DNA from: Candidatus Aenigmatarchaeota archaeon
GTDB lineage: Archaea; Aenigmatarchaeota; Aenigmatarchaeia; QMZP01
Length of the DNA stretch: 64,000 nucleotides
Direction: 5' to 3'
Assembly (NCBI GenBank): GCA_016185435.1
Contig: JACPNN010000021.1
Coordinates: forward strand, 269-64,268
Shown here piece after piece: positions 20,842 through 39,560 of the stretch. Under the pieces are notes generated by a model. It was not told where the DNA came from. It was given only the letters and a program-made list of their open reading frames with translations, and did no database searches. Positions within the stretch are counted from its first letter, which is position 1. Each line of letters starts with the position of its first letter. A program made the translations under genes and the position numbers.

Positions 20842-20888
20842 CAGAATAATTGCACTTCAGGCTTAAAATCCGAATAAAAAGTGAGTTC

Positions 20889-21575
20889 TTATTTCCTCTT
20901 CTCCTGCTTCTCGGCTAGCCTCAGGAATTTCCTCAGGAAATCCTTTGCCTCGTCCCTTATCGCAAGGCCGAAGCCGATACCGAGAGCGAGGGCGGCAGCG
21001 AAGAGGGCTGCGGCCGTTATCAGGAGGATGATGTTCTCAGCAAGGGAGAATTTCAGGCCGAACTGCTCGATGGCCGTGAAGGCAAGAACAATGATAAGGA
21101 ATGCCCTGACAATCCTTATTGCGCCGCTGAACAGCTTGTCCCTTGAGATGATTCTGAGCGTGAAGAAATCGATAATCACAATGCCTACCGCTATCACTAT
21201 TGCGGCCAGCACGAGTTTTGTAAGCCAGAACATCAGCAGCTGGGCAAACGGGGATAAAAATCCTAGGTCAATGGCCTCAAAAAGTCTGCCTGCAAAGACT
21301 GCAAAAAGAGACCATTTTGCAGCGGAGCCAAAGATGGGCGCAAGGCTAGTGGCACCGAATGTGTCCTTCCTGTCCTCAGCCCTGAGCAGCCTGTCTATGC
21401 GGATCCTGTGGAGGACGTTCTTCACGGCAAGGCCGACAATATATGCGCCTATGTATATGAGGGCAAGGAATACCAGCACTATGAGCAGCTTTGGCAGAAG
21501 GGACACAGATTTGGAAAAGAACTCTGACAACGGGATAATGAAAATCTGCTGGAGCATCTCGCCAATATCAGCCAT
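20889..21575 (-). CDS. multi-pass membrane protein with repeated conserved TM-helix units (MscS N-terminal-like)
   Basis: Several ~20-aa hydrophobic helices separated by short charged loops; + strand ORF 20881-21603 is its antisense. Confidence 0.4.
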   Translation of the reverse strand: MADIGEMLQQIFIIPLSEFFSKSVSLLPKLLIVLVFLALIYIGAYIVGLAVKNVLHRIRIDRLLRAEDRKDTFGATSLAPIFGSAAKWSLFAVFAGRLFEAIDLGFLSPFAQLLMFWLTKLVLAAIVIAVGIVIIDFFTLRIISRDKLFSGAIRIVRAFLIIVLAFTAIEQFGLKFSLAENIILLITAAALFAAALALGIGFGLAIRDEAKDFLRKFLRLAEKQEKRK

Positions 21576-22878
21576 ATTGAATGTTGGAAAGCCTGCTTAT
21601 TAACTTTTCGGCCTTCTCTGTTTCCTTGGCCATGCCAGAAGCAAATTTCAGGGAAAGTTCAGCAGCCTGCTCATTTTCCAGACTTTCAGTTGCTCCCATT
21701 CCTCTGGCCTTCTTTATTATCCTGTCTGCAACCGTCTCCCTATCTTCTGTCATTTTCTCGAAAATCTGCAGCAATTTCCTATTTGCAGGGGATATAGAAC
21801 AAAAATCAAGCAGAGCCTTGCAATACCTCCTGACTTCTTTGCTTCCCATCCCTCTCTTTGCAGAGTGCAGCTGCAATCTGTCCACGAAATCGAAAGGAGG
21901 AATAAATAAAACCCCGTCTTCGGTTCTGAATGGCTCGTCAGCGGACTCACTGAAGGATACAGTCAGCCTTCCTTCCCCGATCTCCTTCAGCACATGCACT
22001 ATAATAACAGATGCTGAAAGCATATTGGAAAAGGTGCTCATGTCCATGCCCCTCATCTCGAATGTTCCTATGGAGTTCACCTTAATAGGCGACCAGTTCG
22101 TGTCAAGGGCTGCGCCATAGACTGAAAGCGCATTTGACCTAAGTCTCAGGATCCTCATTTTCCTTGACCATTCGCCGAACCTATCCTCGGCCTGGTAAAT
22201 CAGGGAAGTCACAGTGTGCCTGTAGGGAGGCAGCGCCCCGAATTCCTGGAATTCCGAATAAAGGCCTTCCACGCCGAAAAGCCTGTTTCCCCTGTAGAAC
22301 ATCATCCTTGCGTCCTTTCCGCAAAGCCTCCCCTGGTAGAAAGGGGATGACTGCAGGAATGCGCACAAGGCAGGATCCATGGCGACCATCATGTTGTAGC
22401 TGTCTATTGTCCGCTGGTTGAGGGATGGATTAAGAAGCAGACGCATGTTCCTGCTGAACCTGCTGAATATGCCCCTTGGAAGGGTATAGTGGAAATGGAA
22501 GCCTGTACACCTGCCAGCTATCTTCCATCTCTCCTTCCCGAATATCCTTTCCTTTATCCTGTATGCAGCCTCCTTCCTCATTTCAGGGTCGAAAGAGCCC
22601 GGATATGTGGAATAAGGATAAACATGCAGCATATGCTTTTCGGCAGCCGAAACAAGTAGCCTGATCTTTTCGAGCAGATCCCCCATTGAATCAGCCAGCA
22701 AAGCATACGGTTTCGAGGCGATTTCGATCATCCCTTTTGCGCACTCCTTTTTTGCTTGGCCAGTCATCTCCTTTATTATGACATCTGCCTTGTCTGAAAC
22801 TAACCCTTTCCCATCAATCAGATGAAATTCGGCCTCAAAGCCTGCAAGCCTCTGCTCCCTGAATCCGAACATATACAT
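21568..22878 (-). CDS. GCS2/YbdK-family carboxylate-amine ligase (gamma-glutamylcysteine ligase-like)
   Basis: N-terminal GFEAEFHLID block analogous to the GxExEF motif of GCS2 enzymes; ~430 aa. Confidence 0.45.
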   Translation of the reverse strand: MYMFGFREQRLAGFEAEFHLIDGKGLVSDKADVIIKEMTGQAKKECAKGMIEIASKPYALLADSMGDLLEKIRLLVSAAEKHMLHVYPYSTYPGSFDPEMRKEAAYRIKERIFGKERWKIAGRCTGFHFHYTLPRGIFSRFSRNMRLLLNPSLNQRTIDSYNMMVAMDPALCAFLQSSPFYQGRLCGKDARMMFYRGNRLFGVEGLYSEFQEFGALPPYRHTVTSLIYQAEDRFGEWSRKMRILRLRSNALSVYGAALDTNWSPIKVNSIGTFEMRGMDMSTFSNMLSASVIIVHVLKEIGEGRLTVSFSESADEPFRTEDGVLFIPPFDFVDRLQLHSAKRGMGSKEVRRYCKALLDFCSISPANRKLLQIFEKMTEDRETVADRIIKKARGMGATESLENEQAAELSLKFASGMAKETEKAEKLISRLSNIQYG

Positions 22879-22978
22879 AGTTACGTCTTAATTGTTAAAT
22901 ATAATGGCCTACATGAGGCGGAAGCGTGTCTGACCGGAAATTAAATGGATACGGCAGATGCCCAGGCAACGCAAATCA

Positions 22979-24040
22979 TTAACTGTGCACATATACAGTC
23001 TGTGTTGGGAAGGCCATCTCTATGTCTTCTTTCTCGAACCTCTCCTTGATTGTCAGGTTGATTTTTTGCTGCACATCCATGTAAACGTTGTAATCGCCGC
23101 TGTTCACAAAATACACCACCTCATAAATGAGGCTGAAGTCTCCGAAGTTTTTGAAGTGGACCCTGTCCAGATCAGTGTTCTCTATTTTCCCTATGATATC
23201 CTTCACGATTGAGTTAATCTTCCTCAGCTTTTTTACAGTGGTGCTGTATGTAACGCCAAAGGTGAACACTATCCTTCTCCTCTCCATTCTTTTGTAATTA
23301 TTTATCCTGCTTTCTGTCAGCTCTTTATTGGAAACAATAAGCTCTTGGCCCTGCAGGGTCTGTATCCTTGTCGACTTGATGCCTATTTTCTTCACTATGC
23401 CGCTGTCGTTTCCAATCACTATAAAATCGCCTACCCTGAAGGGCTTGTCAAAATAGATCGAGAAGGAAGCAAATATGTCGCTCAGCACATTCTGGAGGGC
23501 AAATGCAATAGCTATGCCTCCTACCCCGAGGCCTGCAATCATCGGGGTTATATCGTACCCGAGGTTGGTAAGTATGAAGAAGACCGCAAGGACCCATACA
23601 AAAATCTTCACCAGCTTTCCAAGAAGGTCAATTACTGAAGTGTCAGTCTGCTTCTCCTCCCTGAGCCTTTCTTTGATCATTTTCCCAACAGCATAGTCTG
23701 TCAGTTTCTGCAAACCTCTGACTACATAATATGTGACTGTGACAAGAATGGAAAGATACAGGACTGACGACAACATTTCCGGCATTTTCAGGGATTGGGA
23801 AGCAATGTACAGCGGCAGAATCATGTACAGCGGCCATCCAATGGAGTCTATGCTACGGATAATGACGTCATCGAGCTCTGTTTTTGTCTTTTTAGCTATT
23901 CTCATCAGATGCTGGACTATGATATGCTTGAACACCTTAAGGGCAACAGCGGCCGCAATAAAAACAAGGAATGCCACAATATACTCCCCGTAAGGGCTGC
24001 CTGCTATTTCTTTCAGCAGAAAGTCTATGTCAAAGGCCAT
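22979..24040 (-). CDS. mscS: MscS-family mechanosensitive channel
   Basis: GLGVGGIAIAFALQNVLSDIFASFSIYFDKPFRVGDFIVIG... pore-lining TM3 and beta-domain signature. Confidence 0.7.
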   Translation of the reverse strand: MAFDIDFLLKEIAGSPYGEYIVAFLVFIAAAVALKVFKHIIVQHLMRIAKKTKTELDDVIIRSIDSIGWPLYMILPLYIASQSLKMPEMLSSVLYLSILVTVTYYVVRGLQKLTDYAVGKMIKERLREEKQTDTSVIDLLGKLVKIFVWVLAVFFILTNLGYDITPMIAGLGVGGIAIAFALQNVLSDIFASFSIYFDKPFRVGDFIVIGNDSGIVKKIGIKSTRIQTLQGQELIVSNKELTESRINNYKRMERRRIVFTFGVTYSTTVKKLRKINSIVKDIIGKIENTDLDRVHFKNFGDFSLIYEVVYFVNSGDYNVYMDVQQKINLTIKERFEKEDIEMAFPTQTVYVHS

Positions 24041-24174
24041 GATATGGAATTGATTCGCTTATATAAAAAATTTCCATTTTGCATTAGCCACATTAGTCAG
24101 CTTCTGGAACAGTGCTATGACATCGCACAGGGAAATAGCGCAAGCTTTTATGTAACGGTTTGATAGGGGTTCAT

Positions 24175-26427
24175 ATGAGGCTCCTTATAGTGTCGAACAG
24201 ATTGCCGATCACAGTGCTTAAAAAGAACGGGGATCTGAAGTTTCAAAAAAGTGTTGGAGGGCTTGCATCAGGGCTGAAGGCATTTCTTGATGCCGGCATG
24301 CCCTCTTCAGGTGCCACAGGATACCTGTGGGTCGGCTGGCCAGGAGTATCGGTTGAAGGCAAAGCAAAAGAAAAACTGAAAGACATGCTGGCCAGGCATT
24401 ACGCCTATCCTGTTTTTCTTTCCCAAAAAGAGATGGACAAATTCTACAACGGCTTCTGCAACAAGACTATATGGCCCCTTTTCCACTATTTTCCTTCCTA
24501 TGCAGTGTATGAGGAAGAATATTGGAAACATTACAGGCGGGTGAATGAGGCCTTCTGCGATGCCGTTATGGAAGTCGCAAAGCCGGGCGACCTGATATGG
24601 GTGCATGACTACCATCTCATGCTGCTTCCGAAACTCCTGAGGAAAAGGCTCGATGGGGCCATGATAGGCTTCTTTCTCCATATACCTTTCCCCTCCTTCG
24701 AAATATTCAGGCAGCTCCCGAAAGAATGGAGAAACAGTATGCTAGAGGGCCTGTTAGGGGCAGACCTTATAGGCTTTCATACGCATGACTATACGCAGGA
24801 TTTTCTCAGATGTGTCCTGCGGCTATTGGGACATGAGAACAACATGGGACAGATTTTTACAGAGGAGCGCACCCTGAAAGCCGATACATTTCCGATGGGA
24901 ATAGATTTCCAGAAATTCCACACTATGGCGGCGGATCCCAAAGTACGGAGGCATATGGACAGCCTGAAGAAGAGATTGGAAGATTCAAGGACAATACTCT
25001 CCATCGATAGGCTGGATTACACAAAAGGCGTCATTAACCGCCTGCAGGGATATGAGATCTTTCTCGACAGAAATCCCCAGTGGCACAAAAAGGTTGCAAT
25101 GATACTGATTGTTGTTCCATCGCGTCCGGGGGTTGAGCATTACCAGCAGATGAAGAGGCAGATAGACGAGCTTGTGGGAAGGATCAACGGAAAATTCAGC
25201 AGCATTGGCTGGACGCCCATATTGTACCAGTCAAAGTTCCTGCCGTTCGCTTCTCTTGCGGCCCTCTACAGCATAAGCGACGTTGCCCTGGTAACGCCGC
25301 TGAGGGACGGGATGAACCTGATCGCAAAGGAGTACGTGGCATCCAGGCCAGACATGACAGGAACGCTTGTTCTCAGTTATATGACAGGCGCCGCAAAGGA
25401 ACTAGGTGAGGCTATCCGCGTCAATCCGAATCACAGGGAAGACATTGCCGATGCGATAAAGGAAGCCCTGGAAATGACGCATGAAGAACAGGTCAGAAGA
25501 AACCGGATCATGCAGGACAGGCTGAGGCGCTATGATGTTCACAGATGGGCCGGCGATTTCATTAAGGATCTGCATGCAGTAAAGAAAGTCCAGGAGAAGT
25601 TCAATGCGAGGCTCCTGAATCCCGCCATAAGGGAGCGGTTGATAACGGATTACAGCAAAGCACGCAGGAGGCTGATTCTTCTCGATTACGATGGCACCCT
25701 CGTCCCGTTTGCAGACCATTACCAGAACTCATTGCCAGGCGAGGATGTCAAAGGACTTCTCCGCTTGATTTCAGGGAATCCCAAAACTGATGTTGTTCTG
25801 ATAAGCGGCCGCGACAGGAACACGCTCAAAGAATGGTTCAGCGGCCTTGACATAGGATTTGTTGCAGAGCATGGGATATGGATCAGGGAAAGGGGCAGTG
25901 AATGGAACTTGGCAAAAGCGCTGGCGAATGACTGGAAATCCGGGGTTCTGCCGATACTGGAAACCTTTGTTGACAGGCTCCCGGGATCCTTTGTTGAGGA
26001 GAAGGAGTATTCCATAGTCTTCCATTATAGAAAGGCGGACCCTGAGCTTGGCTCTGTAAGGGCCAAGGATCTCATGGACACGCTGCTGAACTTCACAGCC
26101 AATATGGATGTCCAGACACTGCAGGGGAACAAAGTGATCGAGATCAGGAGTGCCGGGGTCAACAAGGGCACTGCTGCTGGTCATTTCCTTTCAAAAGGCA
26201 GCTATGATTTCATACTGGCGATAGGGGATGACATTACCGATGAAGATCTCTTCCGCATCCTCCCCGAAACGGCCTATTCGATAAGGGTGGGGATAGCGAA
26301 TACTCATGCAAGGTGCAGCCTTTACAGCCAGAAAGATGCCATAGAACTGCTGGATGAAATCGGACAGAAGAGTCAGAAAAACGGAAAACGCTTCCATGAG
26401 CGAGCAGATACATATATTACACCCTAA
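24175..26427 (+). CDS. otsAB: bifunctional trehalose-6-phosphate synthase / trehalose-6-phosphate phosphatase (OtsA-OtsB fusion)
   Basis: N-terminal GT20 region (LLIVSNRLPITV...WVHDYHLMLLP...); C-terminal HAD phosphatase LLDYDGTLVPF...GDDITDEDLF. Confidence 0.7.
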   Translation: MRLLIVSNRLPITVLKKNGDLKFQKSVGGLASGLKAFLDAGMPSSGATGYLWVGWPGVSVEGKAKEKLKDMLARHYAYPVFLSQKEMDKFYNGFCNKTIWPLFHYFPSYAVYEEEYWKHYRRVNEAFCDAVMEVAKPGDLIWVHDYHLMLLPKLLRKRLDGAMIGFFLHIPFPSFEIFRQLPKEWRNSMLEGLLGADLIGFHTHDYTQDFLRCVLRLLGHENNMGQIFTEERTLKADTFPMGIDFQKFHTMAADPKVRRHMDSLKKRLEDSRTILSIDRLDYTKGVINRLQGYEIFLDRNPQWHKKVAMILIVVPSRPGVEHYQQMKRQIDELVGRINGKFSSIGWTPILYQSKFLPFASLAALYSISDVALVTPLRDGMNLIAKEYVASRPDMTGTLVLSYMTGAAKELGEAIRVNPNHREDIADAIKEALEMTHEEQVRRNRIMQDRLRRYDVHRWAGDFIKDLHAVKKVQEKFNARLLNPAIRERLITDYSKARRRLILLDYDGTLVPFADHYQNSLPGEDVKGLLRLISGNPKTDVVLISGRDRNTLKEWFSGLDIGFVAEHGIWIRERGSEWNLAKALANDWKSGVLPILETFVDRLPGSFVEEKEYSIVFHYRKADPELGSVRAKDLMDTLLNFTANMDVQTLQGNKVIEIRSAGVNKGTAAGHFLSKGSYDFILAIGDDITDEDLFRILPETAYSIRVGIANTHARCSLYSQKDAIELLDEIGQKSQKNGKRFHERADTYITP

Positions 26428-26441
26428 ACCAATTAACAGTC

Positions 26442-27677
26442 ATGGTAGAGCCATCCTCGGTGTTCGCAGTCATCAGCGGCATCATAATATTCGGCTTCCT
26501 TGCTGAATTCCTCTTCAGGAAATACCATATACCTGACATACTGCTTCTCGTCATCATGGGCTTCGTCCTCGGCCCATATGTCCTGAAGATTGTCCTGCCT
26601 GAACAGGTTGTCTCCTTTGCCCCCTTCTTCACAACCTTCGCTCTGCTCTTCCTTATTTTCGACGGCGCTTTCAACATAAACCTAGTGTCTTTTGCCAATG
26701 GGCTCACAAGGAGCCTCTCGCTGTCTCTTTTCAACTATATCATATCATTCGCTGCGATAACCGGCATCCTTCTGGCCTTCGGCTTCGACATCCAGACTGC
26801 ATCTCTGCTCGGCCTCATCCTCGGAGGCATCTCCTCGGCCTTTGTGATACCGGTCATCAAGCAGGTGAAGATAACAAAAGATACCTACTCTATCCTGCTT
26901 TTTGAATCAGCCTTCACCGATGTCTTCAGCATAGTCTTCTCGATTGCGGCCATGACAATCATATCCCTGAAGATATTCGACCTGAAGGAAATAGCAAGCA
27001 CCATAGCCTCCCTGTTTGCTGTGGCAGGCTTCATAGGCATAATAGCGGGCATAGCATGGATCATAATCGTGACCAGAATACTGAAGCAGCACAAGTCCTA
27101 CATGCTCACTATAGCATACCTGCTGATAGTCTATACGATAACGGAATTCCTGGGAGGCAATGGGGCGATAGCGGCGCTTTTCCTTGGCCTCATGCTGAAA
27201 AACTCCAGGCAGCTTGCGGAACTGTTTGCGGGAATCAGGAAGCAGGAGGCCGCCGACGGCAACAATAAGGAAAAGAAGATATTCATCTCTGTCACCTCGC
27301 CTGAAGAGGAATTCTTCTACTCCCAGATATCCTTCTTCCTGAAGACCTTCTTTTTTGCATATATTGGGATCCTGTTCAACCCCACAGATATCAATTCCCT
27401 TCTTATAGGCGCAGCAATAGCCTTTTCCCTGCTGGTAGCCAGGAACGCATCATCCCTCCTCACCAAAAGTCTTCCTGCTTTCGACAGGAGAATGGTCAAC
27501 TCCATTTTCGCAAGGGGCCTGGCGGCAGCAGTCGTGGCCCAGCTTGCAATTCAATATAACATCCCTCAGGCTGACATGATACTCAGGATTGTCTACACTG
27601 CTATCATCTTTTCCATAATCCTCAGCTCTGCAAGGATATTCATGGTGATGAATAAGGAGAAAGGTGTTGCCTCATGA
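26442..27677 (+). CDS. cation:proton antiporter (CPA1/NhaP-type Na+/H+ exchanger)
   Basis: ~12 predicted TM segments with Na+/H+ exchanger-like composition. Confidence 0.55.
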   Translation: MVEPSSVFAVISGIIIFGFLAEFLFRKYHIPDILLLVIMGFVLGPYVLKIVLPEQVVSFAPFFTTFALLFLIFDGAFNINLVSFANGLTRSLSLSLFNYIISFAAITGILLAFGFDIQTASLLGLILGGISSAFVIPVIKQVKITKDTYSILLFESAFTDVFSIVFSIAAMTIISLKIFDLKEIASTIASLFAVAGFIGIIAGIAWIIIVTRILKQHKSYMLTIAYLLIVYTITEFLGGNGAIAALFLGLMLKNSRQLAELFAGIRKQEAADGNNKEKKIFISVTSPEEEFFYSQISFFLKTFFFAYIGILFNPTDINSLLIGAAIAFSLLVARNASSLLTKSLPAFDRRMVNSIFARGLAAAVVAQLAIQYNIPQADMILRIVYTAIIFSIILSSARIFMVMNKEKGVAS

Positions 27678-27809
27678 TAATGCCCTTGCTGATTGTTTTC
27701 TTCAGCAGTCCGTCAAAAGCGAGGTAGCATCTCTTGATTGCAGTGGATTTTTTCAAAAAGAACAACACAAAGCAATGAGGATATTGGAGGAGACATGACT
27801 GACAGTTCC

Positions 27810-27893
27810 TCACCAATATTAACACCCAACCACAATTTCTTTTATGGCTCCAATCCTTTATCAGTATTTCCTGAATTTCCCCCTAAGGTCAGA
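27810..27893 (+). repeat. ~80-bp direct repeat copy 1: duplicate of the BatA-like gene start region
   Basis: tcaccaatattaacacccaaccacaatttcttttatggctccaat...ttcctgaa aligns at ~85% with 29220-29297, which contains the real start (MASILDQYFLNPY) of gene 29254-31107; copy 1 would encode MAPILYQYFLNFP then stop. Confidence 0.65.
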
Positions 27894-27898
27894 AGTTT

Positions 27899-28264
27899 CT
27901 ATGTATGGCCTTTATTCTCCAGCACAACCCTGTTCTCATCCAGGTCCATAAAAAGCGTCAGCCCAAAGAGCATCTCAGTTCCCATCAGCCCATCCTCAGA
28001 TTCCGTTGCAACGGCCTGCACGATTCGCTCTCTCCCAAACCAGCTGATTTTCCCACTATAGATGGTGGTTTCCACGATGGAGCCGTCTGCAAGTTCCGCT
28101 TCTGACTTCATGCTGTATTTGAAGCCCAAACCCTCAAGCATGAGACGGGGCAGCATCAATTCCCCGTTGAATCCCGTATCAACCACGACGCTGATTTTCT
28201 TTCCTGATATGGGGATTTCTATGTGAGGGGAGAAGGATTCATCAAAGGAACCCTCGATTTTCAT
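27899..28264 (-). CDS. retropepsin-like (clan AA) aspartic protease
   Basis: VVDTGFNGELMLP contains the D-T/S-G catalytic triad in retropepsin context; ~120 aa, consistent with homodimeric retropepsin-like proteases. Confidence 0.55.
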   Translation of the reverse strand: MKIEGSFDESFSPHIEIPISGKKISVVVDTGFNGELMLPRLMLEGLGFKYSMKSEAELADGSIVETTIYSGKISWFGRERIVQAVATESEDGLMGTEMLFGLTLFMDLDENRVVLENKGHT

Positions 28265-28265
28265 A

Positions 28266-28538
28266 TTATAGTGATGTGCGGTGTTTGAAGCTCACAGCAG
28301 CTTTGTAGCCTACCTTTGCGAGGAAGAATCTTTTGCCTGGATGTTCAGCGGCTGCCCTTTCATAGGCCTCGGACATTGTGTGGCCCAAGTAGTAGGCGCC
28401 GGAGTCAGGTTCAATGGCTACGTATTCTCCTTTGTGCTCCTGCTCAAGGATGGCTTTGAGACTGGTCTCGTAAATCCTTTTGCCTCTGCTCACAAGCTCG
28501 CCATTCCCTGCATCCCCTGTTTTCTGCATTATGGTCAC
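28266..28538 (-). CDS. small conserved partner protein of retropepsin-like protease
   Basis: 90-aa ORF; stop 1 bp from the protease start codon; no catalytic motif. Confidence 0.35.
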   Translation of the reverse strand: MTIMQKTGDAGNGELVSRGKRIYETSLKAILEQEHKGEYVAIEPDSGAYYLGHTMSEAYERAAAEHPGKRFFLAKVGYKAAVSFKHRTSL

Positions 28539-28635
28539 CCATTATCATTTGCTGAAAGGCCTTAAAAAGGAAAAATTTATGCCAGCCGCACATCCCCTTC
28601 CAGTGAGATGCCATCTGCAAGACGCTAGTAGTATC

Positions 28636-29020
28636 CGTTCGGTAAGAAGCAAGGGGTACAATGTAAACCTTTTGTAGGCGCTATAAATCCAAAAGGTTTA
28701 ATCCAAAAACGTGGTTGCTGGGGGGGGGTATATTGGGGAAATTCGTATATGTTCGGCAAGAAGCGAGGGGTAGAATGTGAACCTTTTCGAGATGAATTCG
28801 TTAAAAGGTTCAATCCAAAACAAACATCTGTAATGTTGGTTGCTCAGGGGAATAATGGGGAAATTCGTATATGTTCGGCAAGAAGCGAGGGGTAGAATGT
28901 GAACCTTTTCGAGATGAATTCGTTAAAAGGTTCAATCCAAAACAAACATCTGTAATGTTGGTTGCTCAGGGGAATAATGGGGGAGTTCGTACATGTTCGG
29001 CAAGAAGCAAGGGGTATAAT
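28636..29020 (+). repeat. tandem repeat, ~122-bp unit x ~3.5 (diverged partial unit, two near-identical full units, one partial)
   Basis: Units start at 28711 (124 bp), 28835 (122 bp) and 28957 (partial). Unit = gttggttgctcaggggaataatggggaaattcgtatatgttcggcaagaagcgaggggtagaatgtgaaccttttcgagatgaattcgttaaaaggttcaatccaaaacaaacatctgtaat. Unit length is not a multiple of 3. Confidence 0.8.
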
Positions 29021-29219
29021 GGGGACGGCACGTCCCCATGCTGGAGGCCCCATGGGACAGCATGTCCCCATAAGTGCAGTTTTGTTTTGGAATCGATAGC
29101 GCCGAAGTTAATGGATATGGAACTTTCCTTCAAGCTCATGGATGCCAACCCTTGGAATCCGGGCATGTTTTGAGGAATAAGCGCCCGCATTTGCCGCACA
29201 GTAGGGATATGAGAAATAT

Positions 29220-29297
29220 TCACCAATATTAACACCCTTCCACAATTTCTTTTATGGCGTCAATACTCGATCAATACTTCCTGAACCCCTACGGCCT
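29220..29297 (+). repeat. ~80-bp direct repeat copy 2 (authentic BatA-like gene start)
   Basis: See 27810-27893. Confidence 0.65.
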
Positions 29298-31107
29298 TTT
29301 AGGCCTGCTGGCCCTCATCCCTCTCATAATAATCTATCTCAAGAGGCCCAGGCCGAGGAAGATTGCCTTCCCGTCCATAGAGTTCATCATGGGCGCCAGG
29401 AAGAGGAAGAGCCTCTTTAGCTTCCTGAGCTACTTCATACAGGATTACCTTTTCCTCCTTCAGGTGCTGATATTCATAATATTTGCCGCAGCAATGGCCT
29501 ACCCGTATGTGAGCATGAAGCAGAGCGAAGCAGTATCAAATGCAGTGATTATACTGGACGCCTCGGCAAGCATGCAGACAATCCATAAGGACAATACAGG
29601 AGTTGAAATCGATAAACGGACACGCTTTGAAAGGGCCAAGCAGACAGCCGTACAGAACCTTGCTGATATCAACACAGTCATACTTGCCGCTGATTTTCCT
29701 GAGGCCCTTGTAACTGAAGCTGACAAAGGAACTGCCACAAGGCTGATCCAGGAAGCCAGGCCAAAATCAACCCTGACGAACCTCTATGATGCAATGATAC
29801 TGGGCGATGATTACCTGGAAGGCAAGCAGGGCAAAGTTGTCGTTATAAGCGATTTCCTGCACAATGCCAATGACAGGAGCCTCCTGACAGCAAGGAGCAT
29901 CCTTGAATCCAAAGGCATTGCCGTGGAATTCAGGAGCCTGGCAGGCAACGCCAGCAACGCCGGTATAGTTGACGTGAAGGTTGAAGGAAAGAAAGTGAGA
30001 ATCAAGGTGAAAAATTTCAATCAGAAGCCTCTTGCATCCACAGTGGCATATGGGGAGACATCAAAAACATTCAATATCGACCCGTTAGGCCTGGAAAGCA
30101 TAGAGCTGGACGCCAGGGAAGGCGCATCAGAAATAAGCCTCCTGCCAGAAGATGACTTCATGCCTGACAACAGGGCCTACATAAGCATGCAGCAGAACGC
30201 TTCAGTCAGGCTCCTGCTGATAACAAACAACAGGAGCAGATTCCTTTACACAGCCCTGGAGCTCCTTCCGGGAGTGAAAGTGGATGTCGCTGAGCCGCCG
30301 GTGATACCAAGACTTGACTATGAAATCTTTATCCTGCATAACATAGAGCCAGGCAAGCTTCTGCCCGGCGCCGTGAAGGATATCGCTGAAAAGGTGGGCA
30401 AGGGAGCCGGCGTTGTCATCGCAGCGCACAGGGGAATGGAGAACATAGACTACAGGGAACTGGTGGATTTGCAGGCAAAAAGGGTGAAGAAGCCTCTGCA
30501 GGCAATAAGGAAAGAGTCCAGGCTCACGGAAGGGATGGATTTCGGCCGGGTCGGGGAATATTATGACGTCAGCTTCCCCAACACTACAGAGCTCGCTTAT
30601 GGCAATGACGGCAATCGCTCTGCGCCTCTGATAGCCTTTGCCGCAAAGGGCTCAGGCACAATACTATACTACGGCCTTGATGAGGCATCATCATCATTCC
30701 ATTATGAGCTCCTCTATCCTGTCTTCTGGAAGCGGATGATAGAGCAGATGGCAGGCAAGCTCGATGAGCGGCAGCTGAACATGAAGACAGGCAGCATACT
30801 GTCCCTTGACGGATTGAAGGAGGTTGAATATCCTGACGGTTCAAAAAGCGCCTCAAAAACCCTTGTGCTGGACCAGTCAGGGATATACACTATCAGGCCT
30901 GAGGGGAAAAAGATTGCGGCAAACCTGGCCCAGGAGATGGAGTCGGCAGTAAGCTCAGCCTTTGCTTCAGAAGAGTCAAAAAAGCTTCTGTCTCCAGCAG
31001 CCCAGGAAAGAGAGGCCAAGGTTGAAATGACACATCTTGCCGCTCTGCTCCTGCTCCTGCTCCTTTTCCTTGAATTGTTTATACTGAAATACAGGGGAGA
31101 CGTGTGA
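29254..31107 (+). CDS. BatA-like membrane protein with von Willebrand factor A domain
   Basis: N-terminal aerotolerance-regulator-type TM region (YFLNPYGLLGLLALIPLIIIYL); vWA start VIILDASASMQT; C-terminal TM. Confidence 0.55.
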   Translation: MASILDQYFLNPYGLLGLLALIPLIIIYLKRPRPRKIAFPSIEFIMGARKRKSLFSFLSYFIQDYLFLLQVLIFIIFAAAMAYPYVSMKQSEAVSNAVIILDASASMQTIHKDNTGVEIDKRTRFERAKQTAVQNLADINTVILAADFPEALVTEADKGTATRLIQEARPKSTLTNLYDAMILGDDYLEGKQGKVVVISDFLHNANDRSLLTARSILESKGIAVEFRSLAGNASNAGIVDVKVEGKKVRIKVKNFNQKPLASTVAYGETSKTFNIDPLGLESIELDAREGASEISLLPEDDFMPDNRAYISMQQNASVRLLLITNNRSRFLYTALELLPGVKVDVAEPPVIPRLDYEIFILHNIEPGKLLPGAVKDIAEKVGKGAGVVIAAHRGMENIDYRELVDLQAKRVKKPLQAIRKESRLTEGMDFGRVGEYYDVSFPNTTELAYGNDGNRSAPLIAFAAKGSGTILYYGLDEASSSFHYELLYPVFWKRMIEQMAGKLDERQLNMKTGSILSLDGLKEVEYPDGSKSASKTLVLDQSGIYTIRPEGKKIAANLAQEMESAVSSAFASEESKKLLSPAAQEREAKVEMTHLAALLLLLLLFLELFILKYRGDV

Positions 31108-34745: not shown

Positions 34746-35483
34746 ATGGACATCCAGGAAATGTTCAGGGCCATGGAGGGAGAGAGGCTTAAAATAGCGC
34801 TCTTTAAGTCTGCCCTCAACTCCATGCTTGTTTTCCTCGCATCCAATCTTATAGCCTCAGCTTTCAGCCTCCTTGCCCTGAGCCTGCTGCTGGCTTTTCT
34901 CACTTTTTTCGCCAGCCTCTATTTCTATGCTAAGCGCTACAGCATGGGCTATATTGAGGCCAGGAACCCGCAGCTGAAGGAGATGCTCACCACGGCCAGG
35001 GAAAACATTTCAAGAAAGGACGTGCTTACAGGCATACTTTTCAGGCAGGTTCTGGCCCGGGCCAGGACAATATCCTTCGAGGCCATGGCAAGCATCAACA
35101 CGGTCTATCTGCGTGTCTTTATCATAGTCATCCTTGCGTTTGCAACCACCCAGATATCCCCAGCCTATGTGGCCGGCCAGATAGAAAGCTTTGGCAAGTA
35201 TTTTTCAGGCAAGAAGGTTGTGATGGATGTGGAGCTCAAGAACAGCGAGGACATATTCGGGGAGGAGAGGCTGATAAGGCTGGGCAATGACACCCTCCAG
35301 CTGGCCCTTCAGGCCTCCAACAACGAGATAGACCTGAATTCAGCGGAGGAGCCTGACAAAAAGGCCTTCGAAAGAAGCGAGTTCATGTTTGACGTTGAAG
35401 GCTCAGCGGCAGAGACGAGCCAGGAGAAGCTGCCTGAGGACTTCGAGCTGGTGAAGGCGTACAGTTTGAAGATAAGGGAATGA
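34746..35483 (+). CDS. membrane protein of unknown function
   Basis: Two to three hydrophobic helices then acidic C-terminal tail; its last 35 nt are duplicated at 36409-36443. Confidence 0.4.
   Translation: MDIQEMFRAMEGERLKIALFKSALNSMLVFLASNLIASAFSLLALSLLLAFLTFFASLYFYAKRYSMGYIEARNPQLKEMLTTARENISRKDVLTGILFRQVLARARTISFEAMASINTVYLRVFIIVILAFATTQISPAYVAGQIESFGKYFSGKKVVMDVELKNSEDIFGEERLIRLGNDTLQLALQASNNEIDLNSAEEPDKKAFERSEFMFDVEGSAAETSQEKLPEDFELVKAYSLKIRE
35445..35479 (+). repeat. 35-bp perfect direct repeat copy 1 (3' end of gene 34746-35483)
   Basis: gagctggtgaaggcgtacagtttgaagataaggga identical at 36409-36443. Confidence 0.85.
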
Positions 35484-35796
35484 TATTGAAGCATAGATGG
35501 GGCGGCTTTGTGACAAAACTAGTTATGATCTCTATGAAAAAACTAATCATATCTCTCCTTCTATTTATCATTTGTTTGTCTACCAATAAATACCTCCAGG
35601 ACCAAATATATAGCAGAGCTGTTGTGCAAAAACACGATCCAGTACATGCTTTTCAGCATGGATATTCAATCGAAGAAATATTGCCGCAATAAAGGGAGTC
35701 TACTTTTCTTCTGGATGGGTATTTGAGTTTTGTCGCAAGCCCTAGATGGGGCAGAACCTTTAAATATCCAGAATATAATATTTCAATAGAGATATC

Positions 35797-36075
35797 ATGG
35801 AAGAGCCATCGGTCTATCCGCACTATCAGGACAGGCCGATAATCCCTTCTCACATGTCTCAGAGGGAGATGGACTCTTTGCGGATGGATCTGTGGAAGGT
35901 CAAAGAAATACTGGAAGGCGGTTATGACTGCTCTGTCAGCAGAAGAAAGCCAAACATCATTGAGAAGTGCATCAGGAAAAAGGGCAAGGAGATCAGGGTT
36001 GTTGTCGCCCTGATTGAGTGGGAGAATAAAAGCTTTTGGAGGTTAATCCATGTCGGCAAAACAGGTAAACATTGA
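35797..36075 (+). CDS. DUF4258-like putative toxin
   Basis: SHMSQREM...KGKEIRVVVALIEWENKSFWRLIHV resembles the DUF4258 pattern (N-terminal HxxxR(M), C-terminal HVVVA...(I)ITV). Confidence 0.4.
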   Translation: MEEPSVYPHYQDRPIIPSHMSQREMDSLRMDLWKVKEILEGGYDCSVSRRKPNIIEKCIRKKGKEIRVVVALIEWENKSFWRLIHVGKTGKH

Positions 36076-36385
36076 CAAATGGGAGAAAATACCCTGCGAG
36101 TGCGGGAAGATGGCAGATAAGGCCAGCTTAACCTACAGGAATTATCAGGTGAGAGGCTGGAAATGCCATAAATGCGGCAAAAGTTACATACATCCTGCCG
36201 ATTCGCTAAAGATAAGCAAGCTCGAGAAGCTTTCTGGCATGAAGGTCAAGATAGGCGTTGTCGGCCAGAGCCTCGTGCTTCGGATACCCAAGAGCATGGC
36301 AGAGTTATATGATCTGGAGAAGGGGGAACTTGTGGAGCTTGTGCCTGAGGACCTGAAGAGGCTGGAAATAAAAATCAAGGGCTGA
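36050..36385 (+). CDS. Zn-ribbon plus AbrB/SpoVT-like swapped-hairpin DNA-binding protein (putative antitoxin/regulator)
   Basis: CECGK...CHKCGK zinc ribbon, then KIGVVGQSLVLRIPKSMAEL AbrB/MazE-like motif; overlaps upstream ORF. Confidence 0.45.
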   Translation: MSAKQVNIDKWEKIPCECGKMADKASLTYRNYQVRGWKCHKCGKSYIHPADSLKISKLEKLSGMKVKIGVVGQSLVLRIPKSMAELYDLEKGELVELVPEDLKRLEIKIKG

Positions 36386-36408
36386 CTTGGCCAAACTAGC
36401 CAAATTCT

Positions 36409-36443
36409 GAGCTGGTGAAGGCGTACAGTTTGAAGATAAGGGA
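36409..36443 (+). repeat. 35-bp perfect direct repeat copy 2
   Basis: See 35445-35479. Confidence 0.85.
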
Positions 36444-36448
36444 GTAGT

Positions 36449-36616
36449 ATGAGTAAAAGAAGACGTCTGAATTTGTTTCATATTGCCGGCAAGTTAACCG
36501 AAGAGCAGGCGGCAGAACTCAGAAAGCATATCTTTGATAGAAGGAAAGAGATGAGGAAAAGATTGCAGAAAACACGAAAAGCATTGAGTTTCTTCAGTGC
36601 GAAAAAGCATTTATAG
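36449..36616 (+). CDS. 55-aa highly basic small ORF (not in track)
   Basis: MSKRRRLNLFHIAGKLTEEQAAELRKHIFDRRKEMRKRLQKTRKALSFFSAKKHL; starts 6 nt after repeat copy 2; may be a relic or a small nucleic-acid-binding protein. Confidence 0.25.
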   Translation: MSKRRRLNLFHIAGKLTEEQAAELRKHIFDRRKEMRKRLQKTRKALSFFSAKKHL

Positions 36617-36640: not shown

Positions 36641-39475
36641 ATGTCCCTGCTAGCAAAGAAGGATGACTTCAGCCTGCATTCGATTGACGAGTCTGAACTG
36701 AAGATGGCCCTGTCCAGGCTCCAGCATCTGAAAAAGGAGATCTCAAAGGTGGTCATAGGCCAGAATGAGGTCCTGGATCAGCTGCTTATTTCTTTCCTTG
36801 CCAATGGCCACGCCCTGATGGAAAGCTACCCAGGGATGGGGAAAACCCTGATGGTGAAGACCATGGCTGCAGTGACAAGCCTCAGGTTCAGTAGGGTGCA
36901 GTCAACGCCTGACCTTCTCCCTGCCGATATCATAGGAACTTACATAATACAGGACACAGACGGCAGGAAGACCTTCACATTCAAAAAGGGCCCCATATTC
37001 GCGAACATACTGCTTGCCGACGAAATCAACAGGGCGACTCCCAAAACCCAGTCAGCCTTCCTTGAGGCCATGCAGGAGAAGCAGGTGACTGTGGGAAATG
37101 AGACCATGAAGCTTGAGGAGCCTTTTTTTGTGCTTGCAACGCAGAATCCGATAGACATGGAGGGCAGCCTGAGTCCTGAGCAGAAGGTTTTCATCAATGG
37201 CGGGATAAAGACTGGAGAAGAACTTATAGAAGTCGCAAAGAAAATGCCTTTTATCGAATCGAAAAGTTGCAGGATTTACGGTCTCGGAGACTCATACACT
37301 TATTCCTTGGACAGTAAAGGCAGAATTGAAAAGAGAAAATGCGGCCTTTATGTTTTGCCTTATGAGGGCGAGGTGGTTTCGATAAGAACAAGGACAGGCA
37401 GATTGATAAAGGTAACAAAAAACCACCCATTCCTTGTTTCAGAAAATGGACACGTAAAGTGGAAAAGGGCGGAAGAGCTAACGCTTGGCGATTTCCTTAT
37501 TTCTCCTGCTAAACTGCCTCCAGGGGATGAAAGGGAAGAGCTGATGACGCATGGCGAGACCATCGAAGAGTTAAAATCGAGATATAATGTGATTACTCAT
37601 GAGGATTTGCTGGAATTGAGACATATTTCCAAAGGATTTAGCGATTTCTCTTCCCTTGATGGGGCAGGTTTTGACAAGCTCAGAATATCCCTCAGTTTGG
37701 GTGTCAAACAGTTGGCTGCAAATCTTCTGCTAGACAAAAAAGGATACTGGAAGCTTGTTAGGTATTTGAGGGGAAATAGGCGAAATGAAGAATTAAAGAG
37801 GCTGCTGGCAGGGTTCTTCTTGGAGAGCAAGCCTATGCTCAGCGAGGAAACGGATTTCATCGAAAGCTACAGGATAACAAAAATAAGGAGGTTCAGGGCT
37901 GATCCCGATATCGCATTTTTCATCGCATTTCTGCTTTCTGATGGGACTGTTTCCGATGATTATGTCGCTGCCTATCAGAAAAATTATTCCGCATCACTTG
38001 ACAGGTTTATCTCTATTGCAAAAAGGATAGGTCTGGCGGTCGGAATATGTGAGAAAAAGGGTGGGAGAACAGCCAAAATACTTTCCAAGCCTTTTGCAGA
38101 TTACATGAAATTGAGGTTCGGAATTGGGAGACCTTCTTGGCTTCTCTCATTTCCAGAAAAGTTGAGAAAGGAGTTCCTGAGGACATTCATTGCCATGGAA
38201 TCCCATCTTGATTTGAAAAGGAGGAGGATTCTGTTCTCACAAGCCTCAGAGGAAAAAGCGAATCTGATTTCCTATATGCTTCTGAAGGAAGGCATCATTT
38301 CTTGGGCGAGATTCGAGAAAAAAGGGAAGGGCATCTTTAGAATCAAAATACAAGGCAGCGATTTTGCAAGGTACTTGGAGAATATAGGCTGGCTGGAAAA
38401 AACATTCGATTTTCACAAAGAGGGGATTGTAGGAAGCATATCAACCCACAGGACCGTCCCTGTGAGCAAGAAGATGCTGACAGATGTAGTCAAGCTGCTT
38501 GGTTTGGATTCCTTCAGGTTTCCAGGAAGGAAAGAATTTGCCCAAAGAGGCTGGTACAATGCCTACAGAAATGTCAAGGGGGGGAGGGAATACATGTCTG
38601 AAGCTCTGTTCAGGCAGATGATCTCTGATCTGAAAGGGGAAATAGAATACAGAAAATCCATTGACATAAATTCCCTTGTGCGAAAAGAGCCGAGGAAGGC
38701 AGCCGCACTTTGCGGCCTGCCAATGACAGAGATAGCAAAAAATACGGTTTTCAAAAAGCATGAGGTATGGAATCTGTATTCTGGGCAGCAGCATGAGTCG
38801 CATGAGGCCATTTCAGAACATATAGAGATGGTATTTTCCCAAAGGCTCGTTTCTGCCGAAAAGCTCATATCGTATTTTGAAGGCCTCTCCACAGACTTCA
38901 TATTTTACGACAGGATAAGGAGCATGAGATTCGAAAATTATGAAGGCCCTGTCTTTGGCCTGATGGTGCCCGGGACGCACAACTACGTTGCAGGCTTCGG
39001 AGGCTGCGGTATAAACCACAACACATATCCTCTTCCTGAGGCCCAGGTGGACAGGTTTCTGGTCAAGATACTTCTTGACTACCCCAGCAGGGATGAGGAA
39101 AAAATAATAGCGGAGATGTATTCTGCTGTGGAGGGAATTGCAGCTTTGAACCGGGTGATGGACCGCAATGACGTAATGAAGCTGCAGAAGCTCACGAGGA
39201 TGGTTCCTATTTCCACTGAAGTGAGGGACTATGCCCTTGATATAGTCCAGAAAACAAGGAAGCACGAGCACATAGAGTTCGGGGCTTCTCCCAGGGCCTC
39301 GATAGGCCTCATAGTTGCTGCAAAGGCATACGCCTTGCTGAACCAAAGGACATTTGTCAGCAAGAAGGACATACAGTATGTGGCCCTGCCGGTATTGCGG
39401 CACAGGATTATTCTGAATTTCCAGGCCGAGAAAGAGGGTTTGAAGGCGGATGACGTGGTGAAGAAACTTTTGTAA
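36641..39475 (+). CDS. MoxR-family AAA+ ATPase interrupted by a large intein
   Basis: Exteins: Walker A SYPGMGKT, Walker B ILLADEINRA, sensor-1 VLATQNPIDMEG, then ...TYPLPEAQVDRF...; extein total ~325 aa, typical of MoxR; the 944-aa ORF is explained by a 619-aa insertion. Confidence 0.7.
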   Translation: MSLLAKKDDFSLHSIDESELKMALSRLQHLKKEISKVVIGQNEVLDQLLISFLANGHALMESYPGMGKTLMVKTMAAVTSLRFSRVQSTPDLLPADIIGTYIIQDTDGRKTFTFKKGPIFANILLADEINRATPKTQSAFLEAMQEKQVTVGNETMKLEEPFFVLATQNPIDMEGSLSPEQKVFINGGIKTGEELIEVAKKMPFIESKSCRIYGLGDSYTYSLDSKGRIEKRKCGLYVLPYEGEVVSIRTRTGRLIKVTKNHPFLVSENGHVKWKRAEELTLGDFLISPAKLPPGDEREELMTHGETIEELKSRYNVITHEDLLELRHISKGFSDFSSLDGAGFDKLRISLSLGVKQLAANLLLDKKGYWKLVRYLRGNRRNEELKRLLAGFFLESKPMLSEETDFIESYRITKIRRFRADPDIAFFIAFLLSDGTVSDDYVAAYQKNYSASLDRFISIAKRIGLAVGICEKKGGRTAKILSKPFADYMKLRFGIGRPSWLLSFPEKLRKEFLRTFIAMESHLDLKRRRILFSQASEEKANLISYMLLKEGIISWARFEKKGKGIFRIKIQGSDFARYLENIGWLEKTFDFHKEGIVGSISTHRTVPVSKKMLTDVVKLLGLDSFRFPGRKEFAQRGWYNAYRNVKGGREYMSEALFRQMISDLKGEIEYRKSIDINSLVRKEPRKAAALCGLPMTEIAKNTVFKKHEVWNLYSGQQHESHEAISEHIEMVFSQRLVSAEKLISYFEGLSTDFIFYDRIRSMRFENYEGPVFGLMVPGTHNYVAGFGGCGINHNTYPLPEAQVDRFLVKILLDYPSRDEEKIIAEMYSAVEGIAALNRVMDRNDVMKLQKLTRMVPISTEVRDYALDIVQKTRKHEHIEFGASPRASIGLIVAAKAYALLNQRTFVSKKDIQYVALPVLRHRIILNFQAEKEGLKADDVVKKLL
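37166..39022 (+). other. intein (619 aa) with LAGLIDADG-like homing endonuclease region, inserted after MEG of the MoxR sensor-1 region
   Basis: Begins SLSPEQKV (block A-like, Ser1) and ends GGCGINHN followed by Thr; internal FIAFLLSDGTVSD (LAGLIDADG-like) and FLRTFIAMESHLD. Confidence 0.6.
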
Positions 39476-39560
39476 TATTGGTTGCTCAGGGGAAGAATGG
39501 GGATGCGCAGCCTTTGGCTGGCATGCCTTCGCAAAGCGAAGAGCATCGCTGGAAACCCCA
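39471..39560 (+). repeat. single copy of the repeat family seen in the 28.7-kb tandem array, followed by short hairpins
   Basis: tgtaatattggttgctcaggggaagaatgggg matches tgtaatgttggttgctcaggggaataatgggg (30 of 32 nt); downstream ccccatgctg is also shared with 29033-29042; hairpins cagcc-ttt-ggctg and ttcgc-aaa-gcgaa. Confidence 0.55.

Follow-up and report, generated by a model that had tools for sequence, protein, structure and literature searches.

A layered, probable recombination scar with a duplicated gene start upstream of a BatA-type gene in an Aenigmarchaeota genome

The start of a BatA-type gene stands twice, on either side of a small protease module, in the 64 kb of a DPANN (Aenigmarchaeota) genome analysed here (the window). 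The site is built up in layers and is best seen as a recombination scar rather than as a single insertion. The upstream copy of the gene start (copy 1) is tentatively read, with a probability of about 45%, as the scar, at a promoter edge prone to recombination, of an illegitimate recombination event of the 'insertion with long target duplication' type that was later trimmed in sister lineages. Two further small modules in the window are also bracketed by repeats of a gene terminus; the BatA locus is referred to as site 1 and the other two as sites 2 and 3 (Table 1). Three relatives serve for comparison, namely L028 (GCA_053536595.1), L013 (a CAYJTA01 metagenome-assembled genome) and L029 (the SRR22388260 population).

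Table 1. Features of the three repeat-flanked sites and their surroundings, in window positions.
Feature	Position	Strand	Basis or remarks
Site 1, copy 1: BatA core promoter, ATG (27844), ~11-15 codons; relic	27810..27888	+	BLAST, alignment
Site 1, copy 2: functional BatA core promoter, ATG (29254), first codons	29220..29294	+	conserved in L013, L028
BatA/VWA-type gene, 617 aa; heads Bat/MoxR-type cluster	29254..31107	+	Pfam BatA, DUF7406-7408; orthologues 77-78% identical
Spacer 5' of BatA; common to L028 (~83% identical), not L013 or copy-1 flank	29074..29219	+	
'ins149', 149 nt: 65 nt without match, then BatA-start copy 1	27745..27893	+	absent from L028, L029; GC 38%
Clan AA retropepsin-like aspartic protease (DTGF), 121 aa	27899..28264	-	TIGR03698 clan_AA_DTGF, E 3.6e-16
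DUF5678 partner protein, 87 aa, operon with protease	28266..28529	-	Pfam PF18929, 25.2 bits vs cut-off 23.2
Tandem array, ~3.5 units of 114-122 nt + G/C-rich hairpin tail	28630..29073	.	absent from L028
MoxR-like gene 3' end + the 28 nt that follow; each array unit has a stretch 88% identical to it	39461..39503	+	E 4.5e-6
Block absent from L013 (8.36 kb): mechanosensitive channels, GCS2, trehalose-P synthase/phosphatase, NhaP, protease module	20868..29223	.	
Site 2, copy 1: DUF7502 gene's last 12 codons + stop	35445..35486	+	
Site 2, insert: 70-aa ORF, 92-aa ORF, 111-aa Zn-ribbon/AbrB-MazE protein; toxin-antitoxin-like pair	35487..36408	+	
Site 2, copy 2: relic of DUF7502 end, directly 5' of 55-aa ORF preceding MoxR	36409..36450	+	
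Site 3, copy 1: 382-aa gene's last 24 codons + 67 nt downstream	7749..7887	+	
Site 3, insert: membrane-protein ORF body	7888..8518	+	
Site 3, copy 2: relic, upstream of ribB	8519..8653	+	

The direct repeat at site 1 aligns without gaps over 66 nt (27810-27875/29220-29285; 86% identity), and with one 4-nt gap it extends to 79 columns (27810-27888/29220-29294; 82.3%, E 6e-13) in a BLAST search of the window against itself, which gave just nine significant non-self matches over the 64 kb. A sequence-only reading had claimed repeats of about 80 bp carrying the BatA promoter region and first codons; these are real, with a measured identity of 82-86%. The longest identical runs are 18 and 21 nt. 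A 62-nt segment of the repeat also heads the BatA orthologues of L013 and L028, which identifies it as the native promoter-proximal region together with codons 1-11. In copy 1, which includes an A/T-rich box at 27815-27822, the frame shifts after codon 11 and reaches a stop after 35 codons.

The two copies differ at 9/66 positions, with 2/33 mismatches in the part from promoter to ATG and 7/29 after the ATG. Copy 1 might have been kept as a putative promoter, running antisense over the protease/DUF5678 operon and regulating the module. The better conservation of the promoter-to-ATG part and the orientation of copy 1 into the 3' end of the protease gene accord with such a role, which is nevertheless improbable, given that L028 and L029 retain the module without copy 1 and that the conservation contrast is non-significant once the hypervariability of BatA codons 2-8 is considered. 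Dating the duplication by the 62-nt site was rejected for the same hypervariability and because its four versions are equidistant (7-10 differences), so that the site offers no usable dating or polarity.

The window belongs to a metagenome-assembled genome (proteins MBI2676024-58), and its short-read contigs are interrupted at the array and at 35475, as might be seen if the assembler had concatenated two co-existing haplotypes. This origin is very improbable, because unitig-level Logan contigs cross the junctions with 100% identity and the breaks are those expected of exact repeats of at least 31 nt. Contigs from at least nine separate sequencing runs (L001-L009, L014-L016) cover NhaP, copy 1, protease and partner, and others (L010-L012) run from the array end through copy 2 into BatA. 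Both site-1 junctions are therefore matched by independent assemblies, and the repeats are not assembly artefacts. Furthermore, contigs L030 and L032 are 100% identical across both copies at 7749-8653, and L034 is so from copy 1 at 35445 into the insert. The Logan contigs end at 28763 and begin again at 28953, so that the apparent number of identical 122-nt array units is the one given by the assembly.

Between the site-1 copies lie a DTG protease, a small partner ORF and the 122-nt tandem array, as had been claimed. The protease scores 59.4 bits against TIGR03698 (cut-off 57.35) and has its catalytic VVDTGF at residues 27-32; curated score and D-T-G motif together assign it to the clan AA DTGF subfamily. 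Its homologues are 57-83% identical in unrelated bacterial and archaeal contexts. Protease and partner always occur together, at 67-83% identity in loci, bacterial and other, whose neighbouring genes are unrelated, and at 24-35% on Nostoc conjugative plasmids, and a homologous partner of 83-96 aa stands ahead of the protease in every locus examined, the Nostoc plasmids included. In keeping with the earlier reading of an inserted protease module, the intervening genes look like a mobile two-gene module, a conserved, horizontally mobile cassette that recurs in unrelated contexts. With its conserved pair, variable contexts and presence on plasmids, the module would seem to behave like an addiction or toxin-antitoxin-type cassette. 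As in type II toxin-antitoxin cassettes, two small, co-directional, adjacent or overlapping genes are distributed patchily across bacteria, archaea and plasmids, a likeness of the protease/DUF5678 pair that is confined to genomic behaviour. Literature searches on DUF5678 and on links between retropepsins and toxin-antitoxin systems returned nothing relevant, and neither module nor array matched IMG/VR or phage records.

No signs of autonomous mobility were found at site 1. When every insert ORF was searched with Pfam, NCBIfam and PADLOC, no integrase or transposase was detected in the DNA between the copies; the insert ends carry no terminal inverted repeats, and no flanking repeats were found around the module in six other genomes. 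A DNA transposon or MITE was rejected on the lack of inverted repeats at the insert ends and on duplications of 42-139 nt, against the 2-15 bp expected.

The relatives show how the site is composed. The gene order in L028 is NhaP-protease-partner-BatA, as in the window, with a single nucleotide where the window has 27745-27893 (the 149 nt that hold copy 1), and with 2 nt at the place of the 444-nt array (28630-29073). In L029 the NhaP flank is joined straight to the protease, so that GCAGTG is directly followed by AGTTTC, where the window has 148 nt between them. Both genomes carry NhaP, protease and partner at the same place without the upstream repeat, and have just one copy of the site. It follows from these indels that module, upstream repeat and array are three separable layers, and that the module can precede BatA without a flanking duplication. 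The proposal that protease, partner and array formed one inserted unit that made the duplication is not supported in that form, since copy 1 is lacking in L028 and L029 and the array in L028.

As a relative without the insert, L013 serves in part: the site occurs once and the module is absent, but 8.36 kb is missing there and the left flank differs. An inositol monophosphatase gene lies ~90 nt from BatA in L013, and the match to the window starts again at 29224, 4 nt into copy 2. One position, 29220-29224, is bordered on its left by three different contexts. No genome was found with the exact empty site (NhaP-spacer-BatA); a genome-contig scan for closer relatives or empty sites gave L013 only, and two JGI metagenome scans, with a protein and with the conserved 34-nt promoter pattern, gave no match.

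Divergence between the window and L028 is uneven. The module has a dS of 0.22-0.23, far below that of its flanks (NhaP 0.46; MscS and TPS 0.69-0.77; BatA and VWA 1.49-1.65), which indicates that the protease pair has probably been exchanged between lineages. L013 and L028 are close relatives (dS 0.16-0.38). In three-way site patterns the window is a clear outlier for NhaP (59:13:8), whereas the protease is star-like (16:8:12; Fisher p = 0.003).

The 65-nt left part of ins149 has no match in the window or the fetched loci (word size 7; 12-mers at chance). Tandem Repeats Finder (TRF) reports the array at 28725-29021 (period 122, 2.4 copies, 96%), and four units are recognisable (28611-29026). 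The MoxR stop-region stretch copied in the array unit is 43 nt long and lies 10.5 kb away, and the unit also has a stretch like the reverse complement of native 29074-29094, as read from the sequence. Several identities for the array were rejected: (i) a known RNA, since Rfam gave no match at the gathering threshold and none credible to E = 5 (the chance-level matches are two mammalian lncRNA families, E 1.3 and 3.8), (ii) a structured RNA, since folding is no better than that of shuffled sequence (z-scores -0.4, -1.7 and -0.2), (iii) coding DNA, since the period of 122 cannot be divided by 3 and Pfam matched none of its ORFs, and (iv) a CRISPR, since the 'spacers' are identical between units.

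These segments bear on an alternative in which the L028-type order is ancestral and the window lineage gained two junk patches at break-repair sites flanking the module. One, of 149 nt, would include a copied BatA start, and the other would have been amplified to give the 122-nt array; short templated copies of gene boundaries (BatA start, MoxR end, inverted adjacent spacer) would have made up both. Compared with L028, both segments are clean indels, and the same is true of ins149 in comparison with L029; no coincidence of boundaries is required if the long window branch made two gains, the array unit combines the MoxR copy (88%) with the inverted stretch, and junction microhomology is of the CAG type only. 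Such later filling is still somewhat unlikely. It leaves unexplained why the source of a random patch should be the beginning of precisely the adjacent gene and where the 65-nt left part came from, and it gives no account of the other two repeat-flanked modules. In addition, the 9/66 differences between the copies fall at the upper edge of expectation for copying after the split of the window and L028 modules (a window-branch divergence of ~0.11 substitutions per neutral site, estimated from dS).

The other two modules had been proposed to be bracketed by gene-terminus repeats at 7749/8519 and 35445/36409, and both repeats proved real. The site-2 repeat (35445-35486/36409-36450) is 42 nt long and 93% identical, with the first 35 nt identical (E 2e-7), and encloses an insert of 44% GC against 52% in the flanking gene. 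The site-3 repeat (7749-7887/8519-8653) is 139 nt long and 77% identical (E 3e-23), with an insert of 43% GC against 52%. The repeats of the three sites have no common sequence and differ in length (42, 79 and 139 nt), and the inserts measure 0.63-1.33 kb. It is plausible that one mechanism acted repeatedly at the three sites. The search for comparators for sites 2 and 3 gave no close orthologue among MoxR homologues, and cluster look-ups returned the same population only; no genome free of these two inserts was found. The window is also rich in small two-gene pairs of the PIN, MNT and AbrB types.

Site-specific integration could produce a similar picture, with the ~66-nt BatA promoter and start as attachment site, copy 1 as attL and copy 2 as attR. 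The module or a larger parent element would have been moved by a recombinase encoded elsewhere, and the L013 junction would be the work of the same enzyme. Integrative elements commonly bring a replacement copy of the gene end they target. Elements of this kind that target tRNA genes are discussed in PMC2853133. As in attL/attR pairs, the insert lies between direct repeats of a gene terminus and leaves its target gene intact; no more than 4 nt separates the left edge of the duplication (29220) from the L013 island junction (29223/29224), and three unrelated left contexts abut 29220-29224. However, Pfam scans of the insert, neighbouring and larger window ORFs found no integrase or recombinase, the sole mobility gene being an IS1595-family transposase 12 kb off. 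The three repeats have no common core, the inserts are just 0.6-1.3 kb, identity at site 1 is unbroken for only 18 and 21 nt, and the module occurs in six other genomes without flanking repeats, all of which makes integration quite unlikely.

The reading preferred here is that an illegitimate (non-homologous or microhomology) event joined the 5' end of BatA to the 3' flank of an incoming protease/DUF5678 module, the target being the former NhaP-BatA spacer together with the BatA 5' end. The events would have been as follows. (i) The ancestor would have had NhaP followed by a spacer, of which the 65 nt at the left of copy 1 were part, and then the BatA promoter and gene. (ii) About 0.9 kb would have entered, comprising protease, partner, their promoter and the 146-nt spacer 29074-29219, and ~80 bp of target would have come to lie on both sides, giving the intact BatA start (copy 2) and the relic (copy 1). 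(iii) Homologous recombination would then have passed the module tract between related Aenigmarchaeota, its right-hand limit lying in the conserved BatA promoter and start. (iv) The relic would have been lost in the L028/L029 lineage by a 148-nt deletion. (v) The window lineage would have gained, or alone retained, the tandemly amplified filler between two divergent promoters. Duplication of the target at insertion would account, with no extra assumptions, for the derivation of the relic from the very next gene and for the difference between its 65-nt left flank and the spacer now 5' of BatA. In a gene-dense genome, only boundary-duplicating insertions may leave both neighbours functional, which would explain the same architecture at 35445/36409 and 7749/8519.

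In favour of this scar are a significant and BatA-derived repeat, independently confirmed junctions, the lack of an integrase or transposase, the joint travel of protease and partner, the low dS of the module and star-like pattern of the protease, a single-copy, module-free site in L013, the three left-hand contexts that meet at 29220-29224, and the precedent of restriction-modification systems (PMC2853133). Against it, the sole genomes that share the module (L028 and L029) are without the relic, and hence an extra deletion is needed, whose right end must fall within ~5 nt of the old junction (a chance estimated at 10-20%, the protease gene being off-limits). Neither is there an exact empty site, as L013 lacks 8.36 kb against a 1.3-kb insert and provides no clean 'empty' allele, and the array, possibly also ins149, could equally be later additions. 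Either order of events is compatible with the locus: duplication at insertion followed by loss in the sisters, or later filler in the window lineage.

Two known processes resemble the scar. Homology-facilitated illegitimate recombination, reportedly described by de Vries and Wackernagel in 2002 in naturally transformable bacteria, is said to delete recipient DNA in its classical outcome and is not known to have been demonstrated in archaea. As in that process, one side of the event would have short conserved homology (the BatA promoter and start) and the other a 3-nt microhomology, and a young module tract ending in a conserved site would fit; unlike it, recipient DNA would have been duplicated here. 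Insertion with long target duplication was described for bacterial restriction-modification systems (Nobusato et al. 2000, Gene 259:99; Furuta, Abe & Kobayashi 2010, NAR, PMC2853133). There, direct repeats of >30 bp flank a small selfish gene complex without mobility genes, and a genome lacking the insert has one copy to which both repeats align. They duplicate a single-copy target in the chromosome, often overlap a gene end, measure tens to hundreds of bp with a length that varies by site, and are presumed to arise from double-strand breaks or illegitimate recombination; no archaeal case passed that screen (PMC2853133). The sites of the window are alike in having repeats of >30 bp at all three (79 nt, 82%; 42 nt, 93%; 139 nt, 77%), no integrase, transposase or prophage genes, and inserts (0.63-1.33 kb) below 20 kb. 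They differ in cargo, which comprises the protease with its DUF5678 partner, a pair of AbrB type and an ORF for a membrane protein instead of restriction-modification genes, in host, a DPANN archaeon, and in that the sister genomes of site 1 have the cargo without the upstream repeat.

It is conceivable, though unlikely, that small addiction-type cassettes enter this genome by a dedicated insertion route that cuts at gene boundaries and duplicates 40-140 bp of target. The cut at site 1 would then coincide exactly with the upstream limit of the BatA core promoter, which would have served in at least three independent rearrangements. Array and gene-end copies would be by-products of what would amount, in archaea, to a recombinase-orphan equivalent of insertion with long target duplication.

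The movement of modules without mobility genes of their own is poorly understood, and long target duplication is one of its few documented footprints, so far essentially reported for bacterial restriction-modification genes only. For annotation, the lesson is that a short extra 'gene start' beside a small module is a relic and not a gene. With several such footprints in 64 kb, and evidence of a cargo that passes between lineages more quickly than its flanks, the phenomenon would come to include archaea and cargo other than restriction-modification genes, and a set of junctions in an ultra-compact DPANN genome would allow the mechanism to be studied concretely.

Ahead of the BatA/VWA-type gene (site 1) lies a genuine recombination scar, built in layers around a protease/DUF5678 cassette that is horizontally mobile. 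The sequence-only reading had proposed that the BatA gene start is duplicated on both sides of the protease, its partner and a tandem array, all as one composite insert. The duplication was confirmed by self-comparison of the window, which gave a total of nine significant non-self matches: 27810-27875 and 29220-29285 form a direct repeat (66 nt ungapped, 86% identity), extending with one 4-nt gap to 27810-27888 and 29220-29294 (82%, E 6e-13). Per-run independent assemblies proved 100% identical over every junction, covering all but the array interior. The downstream copy (copy 2) holds the ATG at 29254 of the 617-aa BatA gene, and the BatA orthologues of two relatives begin with the same segment. 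At 22-29 nt 5' of this ATG there is an A/T-rich box (AATATTAA), whose position would fit an archaeal TATA box for a leaderless mRNA. The upstream copy (copy 1) retains the box and an ATG (27844); it is a relic, given its frameshift after codon 11 and stop after 35 codons.

Features of the BatA region, with synonymous divergence (dS) between the window and its relative L028
Feature	Coordinates	Strand	dS	Remark
Clan-AA DTGF protease	27899-28264	-	0.23	TIGR03698 above cut-off
DUF5678 partner of protease	28266-28529	-	0.22	
Tandem array	28611-29026			114-122-nt units
NhaP			0.46	
MscS			0.69	
TPS			0.77	
BatA			1.49	
VWA			1.65	
Two genes after VWA			about 0.6	

The window belongs to a metagenome-assembled genome of Candidatus Aenigmarchaeota (DPANN), the name that NCBI gives to identical proteins. 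Three relatives were compared with it: L028 (GCA_053536595.1), L013, and L029, a third population from a separate sequencing run. L028 has the same gene order (MscS, TPS/TPP, NhaP, protease on the minus strand, partner on the minus strand, BatA), with two clean indels in BLAST and MAFFT alignments: the 149 nt at 27745-27893, including copy 1, correspond to 1 nt, and the 444 nt at 28630-29073, spanning the array, to 2 nt. The NhaP flank of L029 abuts the protease (GCAGTG directly followed by AGTTTC, versus 148 nt between them in the window). L013 is without the entire 20868-29223 (8.36 kb, osmoadaptation genes and module), leaving ~90 nt between its inositol-monophosphatase gene and BatA, and its homology to the window restarts at 29224, 4 nt within the left edge of copy 2. 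Upstream repeat, protease pair and array are therefore layers that can be separated, and no flanking duplication is needed for the pair to be placed ahead of BatA. The repeat does bracket the module, but the comparison with L028 does not support a single composite insert, and L029 also lacks the upstream repeat. Relatives without the insert, to which the earlier reading had looked, were found in part: L013 has neither the module nor the rest of the 8.36 kb, and L028 and L029 carry the module without copy 1.

The 8.36-kb block holds three mechanosensitive-channel-type genes, GCS2, a trehalose-phosphate synthase/phosphatase fusion and NhaP; the L028 contig begins at GCS2 and carries the block genes from there onward. 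L013, the close relative of L028, is without the block, and its junction (L013 6703-6735) is occupied by a hairpin-like filler of 33 nt. Another intergenic indel in this island is the TPS-NhaP spacer of L028, with 327 nt + 34 nt absent from the window (position 26412).

Synonymous divergence from L028 differs between module and flanks (see table). Across the BatA cluster, dS between L028 and L013 is small (0.16-0.38), with the window as outgroup. Three-way site patterns (window, L028, L029) place the window as outlier for NhaP (59:13:8) and are star-like for the protease (16:8:12; Fisher p = 0.003). On both sides of the array site, non-coding DNA matches L028 at about 80-83% identity, as expected for neutral DNA as old as the module. 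Together, these data place the inter-lineage common ancestor of the module tract more recently than that of its flanks. Synonymous sites are about half-saturated from BatA codon 2 on, and the right-hand limit of the younger tract lies within the conserved BatA promoter and start. Hypervariability marks BatA codons 2-8 (window 29257-29280 and orthologues), with 5-8 of 29 nt differing among the four versions, the pair L028 and L013, whose whole-BatA dS is 0.28, included.

The array was absent from L028, from every other locus compared and from the viral contigs scanned, with no credible Rfam match, no unusual fold and no evident function. Its 122-nt period means that it is not a protein repeat. 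Every unit holds a 43-nt copy (88%) of the stop region of the MoxR-like gene 10.5 kb downstream, and a short segment that looks like the reverse complement of native sequence at the right border of the array. It is best described as patchwork filler, tandemly amplified between two divergent promoters.

The leading account of the scar, at a probability of about 0.45, is that the module and a 146-nt spacer would have entered the NhaP-BatA junction with the duplication made simultaneously, the relic being later deleted in the L028/L029 stem. This accounts for a relic derived from the adjacent gene, and for its 65-nt left flank differing from the current BatA spacer; the flank had no match anywhere compared. 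Somewhat less probably, the L028-type arrangement is ancestral, and the 149-nt segment and the array were added afterwards in the window lineage. Such later filling is consistent with the patchwork array and needs no boundary coincidence, whereas the deletion in the first account must end no more than about 5 nt from the former junction; however, it provides no source or identity for the copied fragment. All four versions of the 62-nt site differ at 7-10 positions, L028 versus L013 included, an equal spread that does not separate the two histories. A site-specific, att-like mechanism at the BatA promoter edge is improbable: two independent boundaries lie at most 4 nt apart at TCAC|CAAT, where three unrelated left contexts converge, but a scan of the flanking and larger ORFs turned up no recombinase. 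The scar is closest to a known, mechanistically unsolved kind, insertion with long target duplication, reported for bacterial restriction-modification systems with no archaeal case in that screen (PMC2853133). Both duplicate a gene boundary around small cargo without mobility genes, with a repeat length that differs between sites.

Two further repeat-bracketed modules had been proposed, and their repeats are real, being verified in independent contigs. At 35445/36409 (site 2, a DUF7502 gene end), 42-nt repeats enclose a 70-aa ORF and a 92-aa/111-aa Zn-ribbon-AbrB pair; the second copy retains the stop codon and a purine-rich stretch ahead of the next gene's ATG. At 7749/8519 (site 3, the end of a 382-aa gene), 139-nt repeats enclose a membrane ORF. 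The inserts have a GC content of 43-44% versus 52% in the flanks, and we infer that both are insertions. In a compact genome, only insertions that duplicate the boundary spare both neighbouring genes, so such a selection filter may be enough to produce the recurring pattern. The L028 contig terminates inside the 42-nt repeat, and its final 65 nt (13427-13491) are 100% identical to window 35409-35473 (chance probability about 8e-9), against about 75% for the rest of the DUF7502 gene. This hints that the site-2 insert was exchanged very recently between lineages, as in the site-1 module tract.

Other elements were observed in the window. A 32-37-nt motif (GTCGCRCA..CCCYYTCAACTTRACCTCCTGTRCAA) has three intergenic copies (10439-10470, 11797-11828 and 12683-12714) flanking a 188-aa + 189-aa nucleotidyltransferase (MNT-like) pair and a diphthamide-synthase-like gene, and could represent a further toxin-antitoxin-like module flanked by repeats, or else a shared regulatory element. 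Nested duplications at 46317-49257 (A1-B1-A2-[132-aa + 227-aa MNT-type pair]-B2; A, a 128-aa ORF, 84% identical; B, a minus-strand 57-59-aa CxxC zinc-ribbon gene plus flanks, 88%) look like a tandemly duplicated unit whose second copy received a toxin-antitoxin-like pair. The Bat-cluster MoxR-like AAA ATPase (36641-39475; nearest homologue found only 56% identical) is split by an intein bearing a homing-endonuclease domain (Pfam). The sole mobility gene among the window ORFs scanned is an IS1595-family (ISXO2-like) DDE transposase (15344-16114, minus strand), 12 kb from site 1.

In every protease locus examined, a homologous partner of 83-96 aa lies directly upstream, usually overlapping by 4 nt; the flanking repeats and array are absent from all the others compared. 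Examples lie beside the bacterial-type genes rimP and nusA and in other unrelated contexts, and the pair also occurs on Nostoc/Trichormus conjugative plasmids, amid toxin-antitoxin genes. The window proteins (27899-28529) share 67-83% identity with loci L017, L019, L021-L023 and L026, some with bacterial-type neighbours (e.g., rimP/nusA) and others on unassigned metagenome contigs, and such identity of an archaeal pair to bacterial-type loci indicates recent transfer between domains. Nothing bearing on the role of the pair was found in the literature or solved structures. Its genomic behaviour suggests a mobile, addiction-like two-gene cassette, in which the partner probably regulates or inhibits the protease or serves as its substrate.
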